10,704 nucleotides of DNA from an uncultured Nitrososphaeria archaeon (lineage in GTDB: Archaea; Thermoproteota; Nitrososphaeria_A; Caldarchaeales; Calditenuaceae). The notes below the pieces were generated by a model that saw only the letters and a list, made by a program, of their open reading frames with translations, did not search any database and had not been told where the DNA came from. Shown piece by piece: positions 2,939 to 10,340 of the stretch. Position numbers and translations under genes: made by a program. The stretch is from NCBI GenBank assembly GCA_964440295.1, contig CAYTRT010000029.1, positions 4,278-14,981 of the forward strand. Direction: 5' to 3'. The stretch's first letter is position 1, and every line of letters begins with the position of its first letter.

Positions 2939-2963
2939 TCGTTCACACTATTCAGATTAATGT

Positions 2964-3037
2964 GCCGGCGGTGGGATTTGAACCCACAACGACGGGATTA
3001 TGAGCCCCGCGCTCTGCCAGGTTGAGCTACGCCGGCA
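2964..3037 (-). tRNA. tRNA with CAT anticodon: elongator tRNA-Met, or tRNA-Ile2 if C34 is agmatidinylated
   Basis: The hand-folded cloverleaf on the minus strand is GCCGGCG-TA-GCTC-AACCTGGCA-GAGC-G-CGGGG-CT CAT AA-TCCCG-TCGTT-GTGGG-TTCAAAT-CCCAC-CGCCGGC-A. It has a 7-bp acceptor, 4-bp D stem, 5-bp anticodon stem (one G.U pair), 5-nt variable loop, a T-loop reading TTCAAAT and discriminator A. It is 74 nt, has no intron and no encoded CCA. The G1:C72 pair argues against an archaeal initiator, which has A1:U72. Confidence 0.9.
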
Positions 3038-3174: not shown

Positions 3175-3672
3175 TTATGGTATTATCGTCAACGGGCAGG
3201 GTAGGTTCTCTAGGTACTTCTTCTGGCTTCTGAATAATCCCTTTGTGGCCTTTCTGAGTTCCTCTACTCCGATGACGATCTTTGCTGGGCATATGTTGTT
3301 TGCAAGTGCGGCTATCCTCTTCATGGAGTTCTCCAGCTCGATCACTTTATCGTACTCTATGCCTTCCCTTCTAAGAGTCTCTTCAAACGGCATTAATAGT
3401 TGTTCCGCAAACATTGTCTTGTAGACATAGTTTGGATCAGCGTTTATCTTCTCAGTAAGCACATAGTTGTTGAACTCGAAGGGTGGCTTTACACCCTCGT
3501 CAACCACTGCAGCAAGTATTATCTTTCCATCTGCCTCCTTCGCCATCTGAACAGCCGCCTCAAAGACCTTCCTAGACTCCTCACTATCATTGATTACGAC
3601 TAATATCGCCTGCTTGGTCTTTTCTACCTGTTCTTCTACCTCTTTAGTGATTCCCAACACTGCCATTTTCAT
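3175..3672 (-). CDS. Universal stress protein (USP/adenine-nucleotide alpha-hydrolase fold)-like protein, divergent
   Basis: The strand-helix-strand pattern is typical of USPs: AILVVINDSEESRKVFEAAVQMAKEADGKIILAAVVDE, then SMKRIAALANNICPAKIVIG, with a C-terminal LPCPLTIIP resembling the USP CPVLVV ending. The canonical G-x2-G-x9-G(S/T) ATP motif is not evident. The track ORF starts at TTG 3693. I prefer ATG 3670-3672 (MKMAVLG) because the TATA box at 3699-3706 lies only about 10 nt from the TTG but about 30 nt from the ATG. GTG 3675 is also possible. Confidence 0.55.
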   Translation of the reverse strand: MKMAVLGITKEVEEQVEKTKQAILVVINDSEESRKVFEAAVQMAKEADGKIILAAVVDEGVKPPFEFNNYVLTEKINADPNYVYKTMFAEQLLMPFEETLRREGIEYDKVIELENSMKRIAALANNICPAKIVIGVEELRKATKGLFRSQKKYLENLPCPLTIIP

Positions 3673-3698
3673 CACCAGCTGTATGGTGAGCAACCTGA

Positions 3699-3947: not shown

Positions 3948-4781
3948 TCAGCTCTTAATAGATCTGTACTTGTAAATTATGGTCGGTAACGCTACTAATA
4001 AGTAAGATGCATGTAGAATAACTCTGAGCCACTCTGCCTTTACGGTATATCCAACCATGACTGCAAATATCGAGCCTATGGCTCCCTTATGATGGAGTGG
4101 ATCGCTTTGCTGAATTGGCAATGAATAAGCAATTTCCGACAGCCAGCCCAGCTCTATTCCTGACTCCTCCGCATATTCGACAAACTCATGTGCACCGTAT
4201 CCCGCGAGTCCTCCGGCTATAAGTATTAACAATACTGCAGTCATGTAAAAAAATCGGCTCATGCTTAGCCTCACTCCAATCGCGAATATTACATACGCCA
4301 GTACTAGCGCGGCTATTACCCCCATAATTACGCCTATGGACGAGGCCAGCGGAGTAATGATGAAAAAGGGCGTAAGGAATAGGACTGTCTCTAATGCTTC
4401 TCTAGAAACAGCTATGAACGCAAAGGCTCCGAGGCCGATTGCCTCTCCTTTGCTTATGTAGGCTGCGACCCTCCGTTCTATGTCCTGCTTCAAATAAGGC
4501 GCCTTCGTAGTCATCCAATAGATGACTGATGATAATACTGCGGTTGCAGTCCATGCTGATGCAAACTCAAATAGCAGCTGAGTAGATCTTGACAACGAGC
4601 CATATACCAGCCAGACAGATATGCCAGCAAACAGGCCCGACAACACGGCCAAGAATGATCCATACCATAAATACCACGCATAGATATGACCGCCCGCCTT
4701 CCTTAGGTATGAATATGCTATCGATATGATCAAGGCGGCCTCGAAAGCCTCGCGGAGAGCTATTAGAAACTCGCCTATCAT
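3948..4781 (-). CDS. FTR1/EfeU-family high-affinity iron (Fe2+/Pb2+) permease
   Basis: 277-aa polytopic membrane protein with an ATG start and TGA stop. It carries the two family-defining REXXE motifs in hydrophobic segments: ALREAFEAALII near the N-terminus and VSREALETVLFL mid-protein. Confidence 0.85.
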   Translation of the reverse strand: MIGEFLIALREAFEAALIISIAYSYLRKAGGHIYAWYLWYGSFLAVLSGLFAGISVWLVYGSLSRSTQLLFEFASAWTATAVLSSVIYWMTTKAPYLKQDIERRVAAYISKGEAIGLGAFAFIAVSREALETVLFLTPFFIITPLASSIGVIMGVIAALVLAYVIFAIGVRLSMSRFFYMTAVLLILIAGGLAGYGAHEFVEYAEESGIELGWLSEIAYSLPIQQSDPLHHKGAIGSIFAVMVGYTVKAEWLRVILHASYLLVALPTIIYKYRSIKS

Positions 4782-4882: not shown

Positions 4883-7654
4883 CTATTGAGGAATCTCTTC
4901 CTTCTCTAACGTCTCTTTCTTAGCCGGGGCGGTTGTTACGGCTGGCATTATGGTTTGTTCCGCTTTGACAGCTGCTCCTAGTTTGAGCTTTAACTCGACA
5001 TAGACCTCGTCTGTACCGTACTTAATGTCAAATCCGAGTTTTTTGCATAGCCCGATCATTTTTGTGTTTTCCGGGAGGACGATTCCGTAGATCGAGTCTA
5101 ATCCCTTCTCGAGCGCCACTTCGATTAACATGTCGGTGAGCTTTGTTCCAAGGCCTTTTCCTTGGAAGTCATCTGCAACGAGAACTGCAAACTCCCCTCT
5201 CTTCCTATCCGGCTCGATGATCAGTCTGCCAACGCCGACGTTTCTTCGCTTTCCATCCTGGTTATACTCAGCAATTATTGCCATCTCTCGGTCGTAGTCG
5301 ATGTTACAGAACCTTACGAGCATCTCGTGAGTGATATCCCTTATGACTTGGAAGAACCTGAACCTGCTGGACTCTTCGGATAAGCCCTTGATGAGCTCGT
5401 ACTCGAGCGGCTCGTCCTCAGGCCTGATTGGTCTTAAGAGGACCTCTCTTCCATCCCTGAGCCTCCAGAGCCTAATGTATTTTGTCGGATACGGCATAAT
5501 GACGAGGTGAGGATAAGGCTCATGCGAGTCAACACACTCAGGGTCTAAGACAATCCTAAAATCAACAGCATAGATCGAGTTGTCGGTGACTATTAATGGA
5601 TTTATGTCGGCCTCCTTAATCTCGGGAAAATCAACGATGAGGTTCGAGAACCTCACTATTATTTCTTCAAGCTTTTTCATGTCTGCCGGCGGCTTGCCCC
5701 TCATCCCATGCACCAAGGAGTCATAGATCTTCGTCTCCTCCATCAGTCTCCTTGCAAGCACTTGGTTGAGCGGCGGCAGCCCGATGGAAAAGTCCTTAAA
5801 CACCTCCGTAGCAATGCCCCCAGTCCCAAACATTATCACAGATCCGAAATCCGGATCCTTCTTTGATCCCAGTATTAGTTCATAGTTCGTGGGTCTTATC
5901 ATTTGCTGGACGTATACGCCCTTTATTTTTGCATCAGGCGCTTTTGACTTGACCGTATCTATTAGTTTAAGGAACGCGGTTCTCAGCTCGCTCTCTGACG
6001 ACACGTTTGTCACCACGCCTCCCACGTCGGTCTTATGAACTATGTCGTGCGATACGATCTTCAGCGCAACTGGATAGCCGATCTTCGAGGCTATCGAGAG
6101 CGCCTCGTTCAAGTTTGTCGCAAGCTCCCCTCTAGGCCTCGGGATGCCGTATGCGTCTAAGAACTTATCACTCTCATCAGGAGTCAGTATGACTCGTCCC
6201 TCGCTGAGGATCTTCTTTATCAGGATCTTCAAAAAGTTCTTGGGAGGTGAAGGGTCTATCGGCAGGTCTACGGGGGTCTCATAGAGGAGCTCCAAGTTTC
6301 TCTTATACTTGTACATGTATATGTATGTCTTGACTGCCTCCTCGGGAGTCTCGTAAGTAGGTATGTCGCTTTTATGGAAGAGCTGCCTAGCCTCCCATAC
6401 CTCGTCTCCACCCATCCACACAGTCAGGACAGGCTTAGCCCTCGCGCTCTCCCTGACTATCTCGACTATTTCCTCAGCGAGTTCAAGAGACCTAGCTGCT
6501 CCCTGCGGCGTGTAAATCACAACTATTCCATCTACGTTTGGGTCAGCCAAGCATACCTTTAGCGCGGTCGTGTATCTGTTAATATCCGCGTCTCCAAGCA
6601 CGTCAATCGGGTTTCCGTGGCTCCAGTATGGAGGAAGCAGTGCGTTGAGCGTCTCCATCGTTGTCTCAGATAGTTGAGCCAACACGCCTCCGTTCTCCGC
6701 CACTGCGTCAGCCGCTATCACTCCTGGCCCGCCTGCATTTGTTATTACAGCGAGCCGAGGACCTGCCGGGAGATGTCTAGAATCTAGGACGCTCGCACAG
6801 TTGAACAGGTCCTGAATCTCGTCGACCCTGACTACTCCTACTCTCCTAAAGGCGGCGCGGTAAACCTCAAAGCTGCCCGCCATCGATCCTGTATGGGATA
6901 GCGCTGCCTTCGCCCCTGTGGAGTATTTTCCAGGCTTTATGACTATTATGGGCTTGTTTCTAGCGAATCCTCTCGCGGCGCTCATGAATTTCCTTGCGTC
7001 GCCTACGCTCTCCATGTAGATCAGGATGCTCCTGGTGTATGGGTCTTGTCCGAGGAAGTCTATCAGATCTCCGAAGTCTATGTCTATCATCGAGCCCAGA
7101 GAGATGAACATGCTGAAGCCGATGTGGGCACTGACTGCCCAATCTAGTATTGCGGAGCCTAGCGCTCCACTCTGAGAAATGAAGGCTATCTGGCCAGGCT
7201 CTGGGTCTTTAAGAATGAAGGTCGAGTTTAGGCCCACCGGTGGCCTGATAAAGCCTAGGCAGTTGGGCCCAAGCACTCTTATGCCATATTTGCTCTTAAT
7301 TTTCTTTATCTCTTCCTCGAGCCTCCTGCCTTCCTCTCCAGTCTCCCTGAACCCGGCCGAGACTATGACTACTCCTTCCACGCCAGCCTCGCCGCACTCC
7401 TCTACGAGTTTGGGGACGGTCTTGGCCGGTGTCGCTATTATGGCTAGGTCTACGTGTTCTGGGACATCCTTTATTGAGGGATAGCATTTTAGCCCTAGTA
7501 CGCTCTCCCTGTTAGGGTTGACTGGATAGATCTCTCTATCGCCGTTGCCCTTTAGCAGGTTCTTAAGCAGGGCTAGGCCTACGCTGCCCTCTCTGTCCGT
7601 CGCGCCTATCAATGCCACAACCTTAGGGTTAAACATCCGTTCGAGGCTGCCCAA
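4883..7654 (-). CDS. Fused ADP-forming acetyl-CoA synthetase (ACD alpha+beta) with a C-terminal GNAT N-acetyltransferase domain (Pat-like architecture)
   Basis: The 923-aa product has four recognisable parts. First is a CoA-binding Rossmann region (KVVALIGATDREGSVG...YPVNP). Second is a CoA-ligase domain with SQSGALGSAILDW and the phosphohistidine loop ALSHTGSMAGS (His254, codon 6893-6895). Third is an ATP-grasp domain with IGYPVALKIVSHDIVHKTDVGGV (His540, codon 6035-6037). Fourth is a GNAT domain at about aa 726-880 (about 5015-5479) with acetyl-CoA motif A, FQGKGLGTKL. The start is either TTG 7654 or ATG 7636 (MFNPK). Confidence 0.9.
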   Translation of the reverse strand: MGSLERMFNPKVVALIGATDREGSVGLALLKNLLKGNGDREIYPVNPNRESVLGLKCYPSIKDVPEHVDLAIIATPAKTVPKLVEECGEAGVEGVVIVSAGFRETGEEGRRLEEEIKKIKSKYGIRVLGPNCLGFIRPPVGLNSTFILKDPEPGQIAFISQSGALGSAILDWAVSAHIGFSMFISLGSMIDIDFGDLIDFLGQDPYTRSILIYMESVGDARKFMSAARGFARNKPIIVIKPGKYSTGAKAALSHTGSMAGSFEVYRAAFRRVGVVRVDEIQDLFNCASVLDSRHLPAGPRLAVITNAGGPGVIAADAVAENGGVLAQLSETTMETLNALLPPYWSHGNPIDVLGDADINRYTTALKVCLADPNVDGIVVIYTPQGAARSLELAEEIVEIVRESARAKPVLTVWMGGDEVWEARQLFHKSDIPTYETPEEAVKTYIYMYKYKRNLELLYETPVDLPIDPSPPKNFLKILIKKILSEGRVILTPDESDKFLDAYGIPRPRGELATNLNEALSIASKIGYPVALKIVSHDIVHKTDVGGVVTNVSSESELRTAFLKLIDTVKSKAPDAKIKGVYVQQMIRPTNYELILGSKKDPDFGSVIMFGTGGIATEVFKDFSIGLPPLNQVLARRLMEETKIYDSLVHGMRGKPPADMKKLEEIIVRFSNLIVDFPEIKEADINPLIVTDNSIYAVDFRIVLDPECVDSHEPYPHLVIMPYPTKYIRLWRLRDGREVLLRPIRPEDEPLEYELIKGLSEESSRFRFFQVIRDITHEMLVRFCNIDYDREMAIIAEYNQDGKRRNVGVGRLIIEPDRKRGEFAVLVADDFQGKGLGTKLTDMLIEVALEKGLDSIYGIVLPENTKMIGLCKKLGFDIKYGTDEVYVELKLKLGAAVKAEQTIMPAVTTAPAKKETLEKEEIPQ

Positions 7655-7839
7655 ATTGTTCTCCAGTCATTCATGTCTAGCCGTAGTTTTTAGGTTTATT
7701 GCAAGTTTACTTTTCCTTTATACGATTGAATTTTGCTGCTTTGACATTTGTATTAGTGTGGATGTGTTTAGGTCTTGGTAGGAGTGATATTTTCTTATTT
7801 TTTAGTTGGGGTTTTGCTTTTTGTTGTGGTTTGTTATTG

Positions 7840-7847
7840 TTTATATA
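7840..7847 (+). promoter_or_regulatory. Candidate TATA box for sufB
   Basis: TTTATATA on the plus strand. Its centre is only about 20 nt before ATG 7863, shorter than the about 27 nt seen at other genes here. Either the TSS is at or next to the ATG, or translation begins slightly downstream, for example at the in-frame TTG 7878. Confidence 0.4.
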
Positions 7848-7862
7848 GGAGATGGTATAACA

Positions 7863-10340
7863 ATGTTATGGAGAAGCTTGACAGAAATAGCGTTCGACTA
7901 CTCTAAGTACAACTTTAGGGATGAGGTCGAGTACCGCTATGTGACTAGGCCAGGCCTCTCCGAGGAAGTTGTTGAGGAGATATCGAGGATAAAGAATGAG
8001 CCCGAATGGATGAGGAAGTTTAGGCTGGAGTCATACAGGATATTTCGGGAGAAGCCTCTCCCTACGTGGGGGGCAGACCTCTCTCGGCTAGACTTCGATA
8101 AGATTAGGTACTACATGAGCCCCACGGATAAGAAGTTCAGCAGCTGGGACGATGTTCCAGAATACATCAAGAGGACTTTTGACAGGCTCGGGATTCCAGA
8201 GGCTGAGAGAAAGTTTCTAGCAGGCGTCGGCGCTCAATACGACTCTGAGGTTGTCTACCACAATATTAGGAAGGAGCTCGAGAGTCTAGGCGTCGTCTTC
8301 GTTGACATGGACACTGGGCTCAGGGAGTATCCAGAGATTGTTAAGAAGTATTTCGGGACGGTCGTACCTCCGAGTGATAACAAGTTCGCCGCGCTTAACA
8401 GCGCTGTCTGGAGTGGTGGGAGCTTTATCTACGTGCCGAGCGACGTAGAGGTTGATTTTCCGCTCCAGGCATACTTCAGAATAAATGCCTCGAACATTGG
8501 CCAGTTTGAGAGGACTTTAATAATCGCTGAGCCTGGAAGTAAGGTACATTATATAGAAGGATGTTTGCCGAGAGGCGAGAAGGTTCTGAAAGGTGACAGC
8601 TTGGTGGCGATAGAAGAGATAGTTCCTGATGATATCGTACTCAATGGTGCGGGCGAAGAGACGTTAGTCCAAAGCGTTAGGGTAAGAGATTATGAGGGCG
8701 AGCTTGTCGAAATCACACCCCTGTCGCCTGCAAATTCCTTCAAGCTAACACCAGACCATCCCGTCCTTGCAGTCAAAAGAGAATGGGTTAGGACAAAGAG
8801 TAAGACACGTTATAGGCTACCTGAAACATCTACTGAAAAGCTCCGCCACGCCCAGCCTGAATTCATCCCAGCGGGACAGCTTGATGTGGGTGATTTTTTA
8901 GTCTATCCGGTGAATAAAGAAATTGAAGACTCAACTGTTCTGAACAAAGATGCATTGATTGTTCTTGGATACTATTTGGCAGAGGGGTCCGCGTTTATCC
9001 ATAAGAAGTTAAACGTCCCAGTAGTTGAGTTCTCTTTCGGTGCCGATGAAGACGAGTATGTGAAAGAGCTATCAGACTCTATAGAAAGGCTTACCGGCAA
9101 GAAGCCATCCATCATTCGCCAGTCGAGCCGTAATGCCATAACCGTTGTGACTTATTCTAAAGAGATTTACGAGCTCTGTGTAAGGCATATCAGTGGGCAT
9201 TCCCACGACAGACGGTTGAGTCCGAGAGTTATGAGGCTGCCGACTAATAAACAAAGGATACTTCTAGATGCATACTTGAAAGGTGATGGGAGCATCTACA
9301 GAAAGGGTAGAACGTTGGTCCGTTGTTCCACTACATCGGAGGCGCTAGCATTCCAGCTCCAAGAAATTCTGGCCAGGCTCGGTGTGTTTGCAAGCATAAT
9401 GGTCAGGCAGGGTGGTGAGGACATGTTATTTGGCAAAAGAATATTAAGGAAGAGACAGTATATCATTGCATTCTCTCCGAAAAAGAGGTGGAGTGAAGTC
9501 AGGCTGGTAGGGGATTACTTTTTAGTGCCTATTAGGAGGTTGAGGAGGATGTATTATAGTGGTAAGGTTTATAACTTTGAGGTTTTAGGCCGTCACAATT
9601 CGTATCTTGTTAGAGGCTTTGCTGTCCACAACTGCACTGCGCCTATCTATAGTACTGAGAGTCTGCACGCGGCTGTTGTTGAGATTATTGCTAAGAAGGG
9701 TGCCTATGTTAGGTATACTACGCTTCAGAACTGGAGTACTGATGTGTATAACTTGGTGACTAAGCGTGCTTTTGCCTATGAGGACGCGACGGTGGAGTGG
9801 GTTGATGCGAACATTGGCAGTAGGGTGACGATGAAGTATCCGAGTGTCTATCTATTGGGTAGGGGCGCTAGGGCCGAGGTTTTGTCAGTGGCTTTCGCTG
9901 GTCGGGGACAGCATCAGGATACTGGCGCAAAGGCTATTCATGTCGCACGAGACACTACGAGTAGAATCACCTCGAAATCTGTCTGCAAGGACGGAGGCAG
10001 GACGACCTATAGGGGACTGCTATACGTTGGTAGGGGTGCTAGAAATGTTAAGTCGAGCGTGAGGTGCGATGCCTTGATCCTCGACGACCTATCTAGAACT
10101 GATACTTATCCATACAACAATGTCTTGGAGGATGATGCGACTATCACGCATGAGGCGACGGTAGGCAAGATTGGCGAGGACCAGATATTCTACTTGATGA
10201 GTAGGGGTATACCCGAGCAGGAGGCGCTCAACATGATTGTCCTAGGCTTCTTGGAGGGCTTCACTAAGACGCTTCCAATGGAGTATGCCGTAGAGTTCAA
10301 CAGACTGATAGAACTCGAGATGTCAGGAAGTGTAGGATAA
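7863..10340 (+). CDS. sufB: Fe-S cluster assembly scaffold SufB precursor, interrupted in frame by an intein
   Basis: The N-extein (7863-8561, 233 aa) contains IKNEPEWMRKFRLESYRIFREKPLPTWG and FERTLIIAEPGSKVHYIEG. The C-extein (9633-10337, 235 aa) starts CTAPIYSTESLHAAVVEI and continues ...YPSVYLLGRGARAEVLSVAFAGRGQHQDTGAKAIH...EDQIFYLMSRGIPEQEALNMIVLGF. Joined, they give a SufB of about 468 aa with the contiguous conserved HYIEGCTAPIY motif. The 19 residues from TTG 7806 in the track ORF (GFCFLLWFVIVYIGDGIT) are translated low-complexity G/T-rich promoter DNA and are excluded. Confidence 0.9.
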   Translation: MLWRSLTEIAFDYSKYNFRDEVEYRYVTRPGLSEEVVEEISRIKNEPEWMRKFRLESYRIFREKPLPTWGADLSRLDFDKIRYYMSPTDKKFSSWDDVPEYIKRTFDRLGIPEAERKFLAGVGAQYDSEVVYHNIRKELESLGVVFVDMDTGLREYPEIVKKYFGTVVPPSDNKFAALNSAVWSGGSFIYVPSDVEVDFPLQAYFRINASNIGQFERTLIIAEPGSKVHYIEGCLPRGEKVLKGDSLVAIEEIVPDDIVLNGAGEETLVQSVRVRDYEGELVEITPLSPANSFKLTPDHPVLAVKREWVRTKSKTRYRLPETSTEKLRHAQPEFIPAGQLDVGDFLVYPVNKEIEDSTVLNKDALIVLGYYLAEGSAFIHKKLNVPVVEFSFGADEDEYVKELSDSIERLTGKKPSIIRQSSRNAITVVTYSKEIYELCVRHISGHSHDRRLSPRVMRLPTNKQRILLDAYLKGDGSIYRKGRTLVRCSTTSEALAFQLQEILARLGVFASIMVRQGGEDMLFGKRILRKRQYIIAFSPKKRWSEVRLVGDYFLVPIRRLRRMYYSGKVYNFEVLGRHNSYLVRGFAVHNCTAPIYSTESLHAAVVEIIAKKGAYVRYTTLQNWSTDVYNLVTKRAFAYEDATVEWVDANIGSRVTMKYPSVYLLGRGARAEVLSVAFAGRGQHQDTGAKAIHVARDTTSRITSKSVCKDGGRTTYRGLLYVGRGARNVKSSVRCDALILDDLSRTDTYPYNNVLEDDATITHEATVGKIGEDQIFYLMSRGIPEQEALNMIVLGFLEGFTKTLPMEYAVEFNRLIELEMSGSVG
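8562..9632 (+). mobile_element. SufB intein (357 aa) with a LAGLIDADG (dodecapeptide) homing endonuclease domain
   Basis: It begins with Cys1 (TGT 8562-8564; block A, CLPRGEKVL). Block B TxxH is present (LTPDHPVL). LAGLIDADG motif 1 is LGYYLAEGS (8964-8990) and motif 2 is LLDAYLKGDGS (9264-9293). Block F is VYNFEVLGRHNSYLV, and block G ends in His-Asn (FAVHN, 9618-9632) followed by the +1 Cys (TGC 9633-9635). The length is exactly 1071 nt, in frame, with no stop codons. Confidence 0.9.

Follow-up and report, generated by a model that had tools for sequence, protein, structure and literature searches.

A SufB intein with a nested LAGLIDADG endonuclease in a Caldarchaeales archaeon, very probably the allele known from Mycobacterium tuberculosis

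The interrupted sufB gene and the anatomy of its insert

The stretch of DNA analysed here, referred to as the window, comprises 10,704 nt of contig CAYTRT010000029.1. Its + strand holds one long open reading frame (ORF, 7806..10340) with the gene sufB, which codes for an iron-sulphur (Fe-S) cluster scaffold and is interrupted in frame by what is very probably an intein with a homing endonuclease. The ORF translates as ...EPGSKVHYIEG↓CLPRGEKV...SYLVRGFAVHN↓CTAPIYSTESL..., where arrows mark the borders of the insert here and below. The predicted features are as follows.

7863..10340, + strand: sufB precursor ORF, 825 codons and stop, predicted 94.0 kDa; ATG 7863 is the start called in public assemblies
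7863..8561, + strand: N-extein, 233 amino acids (aa), C-terminal end ...VHYIEG
8562..9632, + strand: predicted intein, 1071 nt or 357 codons, in frame and without stop; 40.8 kDa, basic, pI 9.5
8562..8909, + strand: N-terminal part of the Hint (splicing) domain, residues 1-116; limits by homology to the M. tuberculosis SufB intein (Table S2 of PMC8891592)
8562-8564, + strand: block A, Cys1, invariant in the family alignments
8748-8759, + strand: block B, T63-P-D-H66; T63 and H66 invariant in the family alignments
8910..9515, + strand: nested LAGLIDADG homing-endonuclease domain, residues 117-318, by Pfam LAGLIDADG_3, profile matches and fold
8964-8990, + strand: LAGLIDADG motif 1, LGYYLAEGS, with the acidic residue E141, invariant
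9258-9293, + strand: LAGLIDADG motif 2, ILLDAYLKGDGS, including LLDAYLKGDGS, with the acidic residue D242, nearly invariant
9516..9632, + strand: C-terminal part of the Hint domain, residues 319-357, blocks F and G (YFLVPI...VYNFEV...SYLVRGFAVHN), by TIGR01443 and homology to the M. tuberculosis C-terminal domain
9627-9632, + strand: His356-Asn357, both invariant in the family alignments
9633..10340, + strand: C-extein, 235 aa and stop; first residue Cys+1 (9633-9635, TGC)

The NCBIfam equivalog model TIGR01980 matches the precursor at 2.4e-205 (682 bits, cut-off 346) in two stretches flanking the insert, and Pfam SUFBD_core likewise falls into two separate stretches. Splicing in silico yields a SufB of 468 aa (predicted 53.3 kDa) with the restored junction motif VHYIEGCTAPIY. 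It aligns to E. coli SufB (PDB 5awf) at 4e-103 and without a gap over ...YIEGC(T/S)AP.... An earlier inspection of the bare letters, here called the sequence-only reading, had proposed that sufB is interrupted by exactly 1071 nt at 8562-9632 whose removal restores VHYIEG↓CTAPIY, which proves correct to the base. It had also equated Cys+1 with Cys254 of E. coli SufB, and the 5awf alignment bears this out: counted along it, Cys+1 falls on Cys254 and the second conserved Cys of the C-extein on Cys405. In E. coli, Cys254 is the persulfide acceptor (PMC5571166). By its sequence the host protein is thus SufB, the Fe-S cluster scaffold, with the counterparts of Cys254 and Cys405 kept. N-extein position -5 is the conserved His also found in M. 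tuberculosis SufB, and position -38 is Glu.

Two observations concern the start of the gene. A TTTATATA box is located at 7840-7847, just 15 nt ahead of ATG 7863. An in-frame TTG at 7878 could serve as alternative start (MTEIAF..., N-extein of 228 instead of 233 aa) and agrees with the annotated N-terminus of several relatives, P0067 among them.

All hallmarks of a class-1 intein that the sequence-only reading had listed (Cys1, TxxH, two LAGLIDADG motifs, a terminal HN and a +1 Cys) could be located and are invariant or nearly so. Across 19-20 family members C1, T63, H66, E141, G142, G241, G243, H356 and N357 do not vary, and neither does Cys+1. The invariant or near-invariant positions are therefore the splicing residues of blocks A, B and G together with both metal-binding acids of the LAGLIDADG motifs. 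In block F (VYNFEV; residues 337-339, window 9570-9578) N338 is invariant in the family, M. tuberculosis SufB included. Asp is common at the corresponding position in many class-1 inteins.

Pfam LAGLIDADG_3 (PF14528) matches the insert at 5.9e-9, and TIGR01443 (intein_Cterm) exceeds its cut-off of 15.6 with 19.3 bits. A search of PDB with the single sequence gives weak matches, VMA inteins at 2e-3, while a profile built from 19 family members retrieves PI-PkoII at 2.3e-13 and the TliVMA intein at 5e-11. The AlphaFold2 model, built on the family alignment, has a mean pLDDT (predicted local distance difference test) of 90.1 and a pTM (predicted template modelling score) of 0.88; residues about 72-100 form a family-specific excursion of lower model confidence. 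Foldseek returns endonuclease-bearing inteins as best PDB matches, led by TliVMA (E=1e-18, TM-score 0.70) and including PI-SceI, PhoVMA, PI-PfuI and PI-TkoII; monomeric LAGLIDADG enzymes that stand alone, I-DmoI among them, rank next. The solved inteins TliVMA (7qsu), PI-SceI (1vde), PI-PfuI (1dq3) and PI-TkoII (2cw7) share the two-domain architecture and the fold (E 1e-18 to 7e-13, TM-scores 0.60-0.70), whereas they reside in other host proteins and have only 11-16% sequence identity to the window intein. In the model, then, the Hint fold is present, with both domains matching solved inteins, and so is a double-motif LAGLIDADG endonuclease architecture of alpha-beta-beta-alpha-beta-beta-alpha repeats.

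The M. tuberculosis intein and the distribution of the allele

The host is a Caldarchaeales archaeon ('Aigarchaeota', phylum Nitrososphaerota). In the protein search the entries nearest to the spliced SufB bear the labels Nitrososphaerota, Aigarchaeota, Calditenuaceae or Caldarchaeum, and the literature places Candidatus (Ca.) Calditenuis in Ca. Caldarchaeales. The genome had been called crenarchaeote-like, which does not hold in the strict sense. Its two closest SufB proteins, P0065 (95%, 468 aa) and P0067 (90%, 463 aa), carry no intein. A comparison with intein-free SufB had been suggested along with the sequence-only reading, and these nearest relatives indeed read VHYIEG-CTAPIY unbroken. 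Among near relatives the intein thus has a patchy occurrence, in line with gain and loss of a mobile element.

M. tuberculosis SufB (Pps1, Rv1461) has a precursor of 252 + 359 + 235 aa, in which position -5 is a conserved His (PMC8891592). Its junctions are given in Table S2 of that paper as N-extein ...EGSYVHYVEG, intein CLPAGELI...SYLAYGFAVHN and C-extein CTAPIYKSDSLH..., and Ferroplasma SufB is described there as divergent. Using the intein sequence machine-read from the PDF of this table (354 of 359 residues recovered), BLASTP aligns the window intein to its M. tuberculosis counterpart over the full length with 37% identity (E=2e-64). Chance can account neither for this match nor for the Foldseek one. 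Both sit at the same site, VHY(V/I)EG↓C...HN↓CTAPIY, and share the Cys1, His-Asn and Cys+1 chemistry, nearly the same length (357 versus 359 aa), the order Hint-N, LAGLIDADG, Hint-C, the C-extein of 235 aa and the His at -5. Moreover they fall into one clade of a neighbour-joining (NJ) tree. The systems differ in position -38 (His in M. tuberculosis, Glu in the window), in the host, an actinobacterium as opposed to a thermophile-type Caldarchaeales archaeon, and in gene context: PMC6034842 places the M. tuberculosis gene within the suf operon, whereas the window sufB is solitary, with no adjacent sufC or sufD. Neither sufC, sufD nor sufS adjoins sufB in the window or in two related Caldarchaeales loci (L003, L005).

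The same site and the full-length homology identify this as the known allele, as opposed to one that invaded a new site on its own. This settles a question which the sequence-only reading had considered undecidable from the sequence alone. We therefore hold with high confidence that bases 8562-9632 encode a canonical intein of the M. tuberculosis SufB (Pps1) allele, in which a LAGLIDADG homing endonuclease is nested. A literature search on the mycobacterial site nomenclature (PI-MgaI/pps1) gave no relevant paper.

To survey the allele, the family alignment was scanned against one genome per GTDB species, giving at least 453 confirmed loci, and the junctions were read in the best 80. In 78 of these 80 the intein occupies SufB EG↓C...HN↓C(T/S)A, with both junctions and an uninterrupted frame of 349-366 aa. 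The other two are L011, which ends at a contig edge, and L014, a match of 528 aa evidently with an extra insertion. Hosts among the best 80 include Ca. Calditenuis, Bipolaricaulia, Chloroflexota, Armatimonadota, Eisenbacteria, several groups of the candidate phyla radiation and Steroidobacteraceae, as well as further archaea: Thermoplasmata (several metagenome-assembled genomes, MAGs), Nitrososphaerales, Nanoarchaeota and ARMAN-4. With just the intein as query, a protein search retrieved SufB inteins of Nitrososphaerota, Pyrodictium, Thermoflexus, Dehalococcoidia, Methylothermus and Rokubacteria. The SufB-site allele is widespread in both prokaryotic domains; the earlier view of SufB inteins as known from mycobacteria and a few archaea was too narrow.

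The same-site inteins of the best 80 (e.g. that of the Nitrososphaerota MAG L005) show 41-65% identity to the window intein. The closest of them belongs to Ca. Calditenuis sp. PSP.bin.8 (L006), with 65% in the intein and about 89% in the exteins. Identity in the intein poorly follows identity in the exteins: the intein of a bacterial Bipolaricaulia (52%) is about as similar as that of another Nitrososphaerota archaeon (54%). This pattern suggests rapid evolution of the inteins, horizontal transfer or a combination of the two.

Annotation of such genes is uneven. At L005 an intact precursor ORF of 823 aa spans 5275-7746, while the deposited product P0001 (6001-7746) is a 581-aa 'SufD family' protein that starts within the intein. 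Many other protein matches to the intein query likewise start within the intein, some perhaps truncated by contig ends. Since automatic annotation often splits or misnames precursors, annotation-based surveys under-count SufB inteins.

Proposed splicing and homing, and competing explanations

Following the class-1 pathway, sufB would be translated as a 94-kDa precursor, in which an N-S acyl shift at Cys1 would turn the Gly-Cys1 peptide bond into a thioester. Cys+1, the counterpart of E. coli Cys254, would attack this thioester (trans-thioesterification) to form a branched intermediate. Cyclisation of Asn357, aided by His356, would then free the 41-kDa intein, and an S-N shift would leave a normal Gly-Cys bond in a SufB of 53 kDa. 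Before splicing a 357-residue insert would lie beside the persulfide-accepting Cys, and SufB would be expected to be inactive.

For M. tuberculosis SufB, splicing occurs in vitro and is reported to be assisted by His-38 (PMC8891592). According to the summary in PMC8529194, splicing is required for SufBCD assembly, the unspliced precursor not assembling with SufC and SufD (Huet 2006), and oxidants trap a disulfide between Cys1 and Cys+1 (Topilina 2015); PMC5874633 also summarises redox inhibition of this splicing. By analogy, a precursor that fails to assemble with SufC and SufD or is locked by a Cys1-Cys+1 disulfide may occur here too.

For homing, the endonuclease would be expected to cut intein-free sufB at ...ATT GAG GGC↓TGT ACT GCG..., and recombinational repair would copy the intein in. 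The candidate target site in the intein-free sufB of L003, the locus of P0065, reads GTTCACTACATTGAGGGC↓TGTACTGCGCCGATCTAT. Endonuclease activity is plausible in that both catalytic acids and a complete domain, well folded in the model, are kept.

L003 is partly syntenic with the window. Its sufB and the spliced gene of the window are 86.4% identical in nucleotides; 155 codons show synonymous and 22 non-synonymous differences. At the wobble position, each of the six codons 5' of the insertion differs, as does the Cys+1 codon, and the 60-nt segment holding the junction is the most mismatched one. Given 33% differing codons, the rough chance of such a run at the junction is about 0.2. We considered it as a signature of co-conversion or homing-site immunity and rejected it, as the intein-bearing Caldarchaeales alleles L005 and L006 lack the junction variants of the window. 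Base composition was likewise dismissed as more than a weak sign of recent invasion. The G+C fraction at third codon positions (GC3) is 0.485 in the intein, compared with 0.61 and 0.56 in the exteins and 0.57 in the other codons of the window (3 of 10,000 resamples as low), but the host gene FTR1 is equally low at 0.482.

Several points weigh against a canonical, mobile intein. Pfam Intein_splicing (PF14890) reaches 23 bits, below its gathering score of 35.8, and TIGR01445 (intein_Nterm) 19, below 24.5. With the N-terminal models under threshold, the Hint assignment is carried by the C-terminal model, the homology to the M. tuberculosis intein and the fold match. In addition, the N-extein has Glu at -38, where His assists splicing in M. 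tuberculosis (PMC8891592). The mildly lower GC3 and the missing co-conversion signature in the flanks leave the invasion undated. Finally, splicing and DNA cleavage are what we infer from the conserved residues and the M. tuberculosis homologue.

The insert could have been a domain of SufB peculiar to its lineage and never excised, a case that the sequence-only reading had named as one that would overturn it. Beyond the in-frame insertion itself nothing speaks for this. SufB proteins of 95% and 90% identity lack the insert, and it has the catalytic residues and the matched fold of inteins and is homologous to an intein that splices in experiments; we regard such a domain as scarcely credible. 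An assembly chimera or sequencing artefact, conceivable for a metagenomic source, is just as improbable. The window, ENA ERZ27245635 and Logan SRR5468562 all encode the identical 825-aa protein, and homologous precursors are present in hundreds of genomes. The window differs from the ENA contig (L001) at 26 of its 10,704 positions, and L001 and L002 have one synonymous difference each in the gene. The same protein in independent assemblies excludes an assembly artefact.

Two further explanations refine the intein reading and are not alternatives to it. Many intein endonucleases are inactive. The element might still splice but have lost DNA cleavage, and so be near the end of its homing cycle, unable to move and passed on by vertical descent as a passenger. 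The frequency of inactive endonucleases would agree with this, as would the long evolution of the intein implied by 65% identity to its closest relative compared with about 89% in the exteins, and the failure to find a co-conversion tract. On the other hand, E141 is invariant and D242 nearly so across SufB and IscU family members, the endonuclease domain is of full length with a confident fold in the model, 78 of the 80 loci inspected have an unbroken reading frame, and empty sites in near relatives are consistent with ongoing gain and loss. A passenger state is possible but not the likelier case. Somewhat less probable still is that the intein, besides being selfish, acts as a switch of conditional splicing, with oxidation linking Cys1 and Cys+1 and SufB being kept as inactive precursor as in M. 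tuberculosis. The site, the cysteine pair and a homologous intein are all shared with that species, whose SufB splicing is redox-inhibited according to the summaries in PMC8529194 and PMC5874633, and Cys+1 corresponds to the persulfide acceptor. However, the closest relatives do without the intein, so any such role must be dispensable, and the His-38 that tunes M. tuberculosis splicing is not conserved in the window.

Related inteins, neighbouring genes and wider meaning

A sister clade of the SufB-site inteins is found in IscU/NifU_N scaffolds (P0014-P0057). These inteins are 34-40% identical to the window intein over the full length, comprise ~357 aa, start with CLP and end with GFAVHN. They are inserted at FG↓C(G/V/A)AAIA, directly ahead of the conserved second ligand Cys, and in a Hadarchaeota MAG (L086 4001-5491) such an intein lies within an iscS-iscU gene pair. 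A full-text literature search, whose reach did not extend to the supplementary tables of Novikova 2016, brought up no account of IscU inteins. A relative at greater distance (29% identity) occurs in an A-type Fe-S carrier (PF01521) at GGG↓CAGFQY (L087 2525-3928, P0060). On its contig are T4-like phage genes (gp13, gp19, baseplate) and, at the contig end (7017-7928), a gene with another intein. This suggests phages as vehicles of the lineage.

In the NJ tree, which is without support values, 85 SufB-site inteins (window and M. tuberculosis included) and 38 IscU-site inteins form reciprocally monophyletic sisters, and the A-type-carrier intein branches next. It is conceivable, though doubtful, that the lineage moved between non-homologous Fe-S assembly proteins (SufB EG↓CTAP, IscU FG↓C(G/V/A)AAIA, phage A-type carrier GGG↓CAGFQY), each time ahead of a functional Cys that became the +1 nucleophile, with splicing as a possible thiol/redox checkpoint.

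Ca. Caldarchaeum and Calditenuaceae HR02 (P0083, P0093, P0101) have SufB inteins at a second site, VDANIG↓C...HN↓S(K/R)VTMKYP. They share with the window intein the host gene, the archaeal order and the presence of LAGLIDADG motifs. In contrast, they are located ~62 residues downstream, at a site unoccupied in the window, have Ser at +1 and belong to an unrelated lineage (mean distance 0.88, outgroup of the NJ tree). C-exteins of 494-1000 aa in L013, L014, L015, L021, L022, L033, L046, L058 and L065 imply two or more inteins in one SufB.

The remaining features of the window are listed below.

788-2801, - strand: periplasmic-binding protein and permease
2962-3036, - strand: tRNA-Met (CAT), between the binding-protein and universal stress protein genes, by ARAGORN and Rfam
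3175-3693, - strand: universal stress protein
3948-4781, - strand: FTR1 iron permease
4883-7654, - strand: Pat-like fusion of ADP-forming acyl-CoA synthetase and GNAT acetyltransferase
10353 onward, - strand: glycosyltransferase

At L003 the FTR1 gene is shrunk to 116 aa and lies beside a TnpB/Cas12f-like gene (PF07282; 363-1896). A KaiC-like ATPase and a 180-aa ORF (4942-6208) are placed there between the acetyltransferase fusion and sufB; neither is found in the window.

Taken together, the locus is a further member of a known, common and experimentally studied intein allele, real but ordinary. It adds one host lineage, Caldarchaeales, and little beyond that. The M. tuberculosis SufB intein, studied as drug target and stress sensor, is seen to be a minor branch of a very large family spanning both domains, of which thermophilic members such as the window intein may offer robust comparative or engineering material. 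If the recurrence in Fe-S proteins reflects more than resemblance of target sites (G↓C-x-A), splicing in this lineage could be a thiol/redox checkpoint on Fe-S biogenesis beyond mycobacteria, a thermophilic archaeon included.

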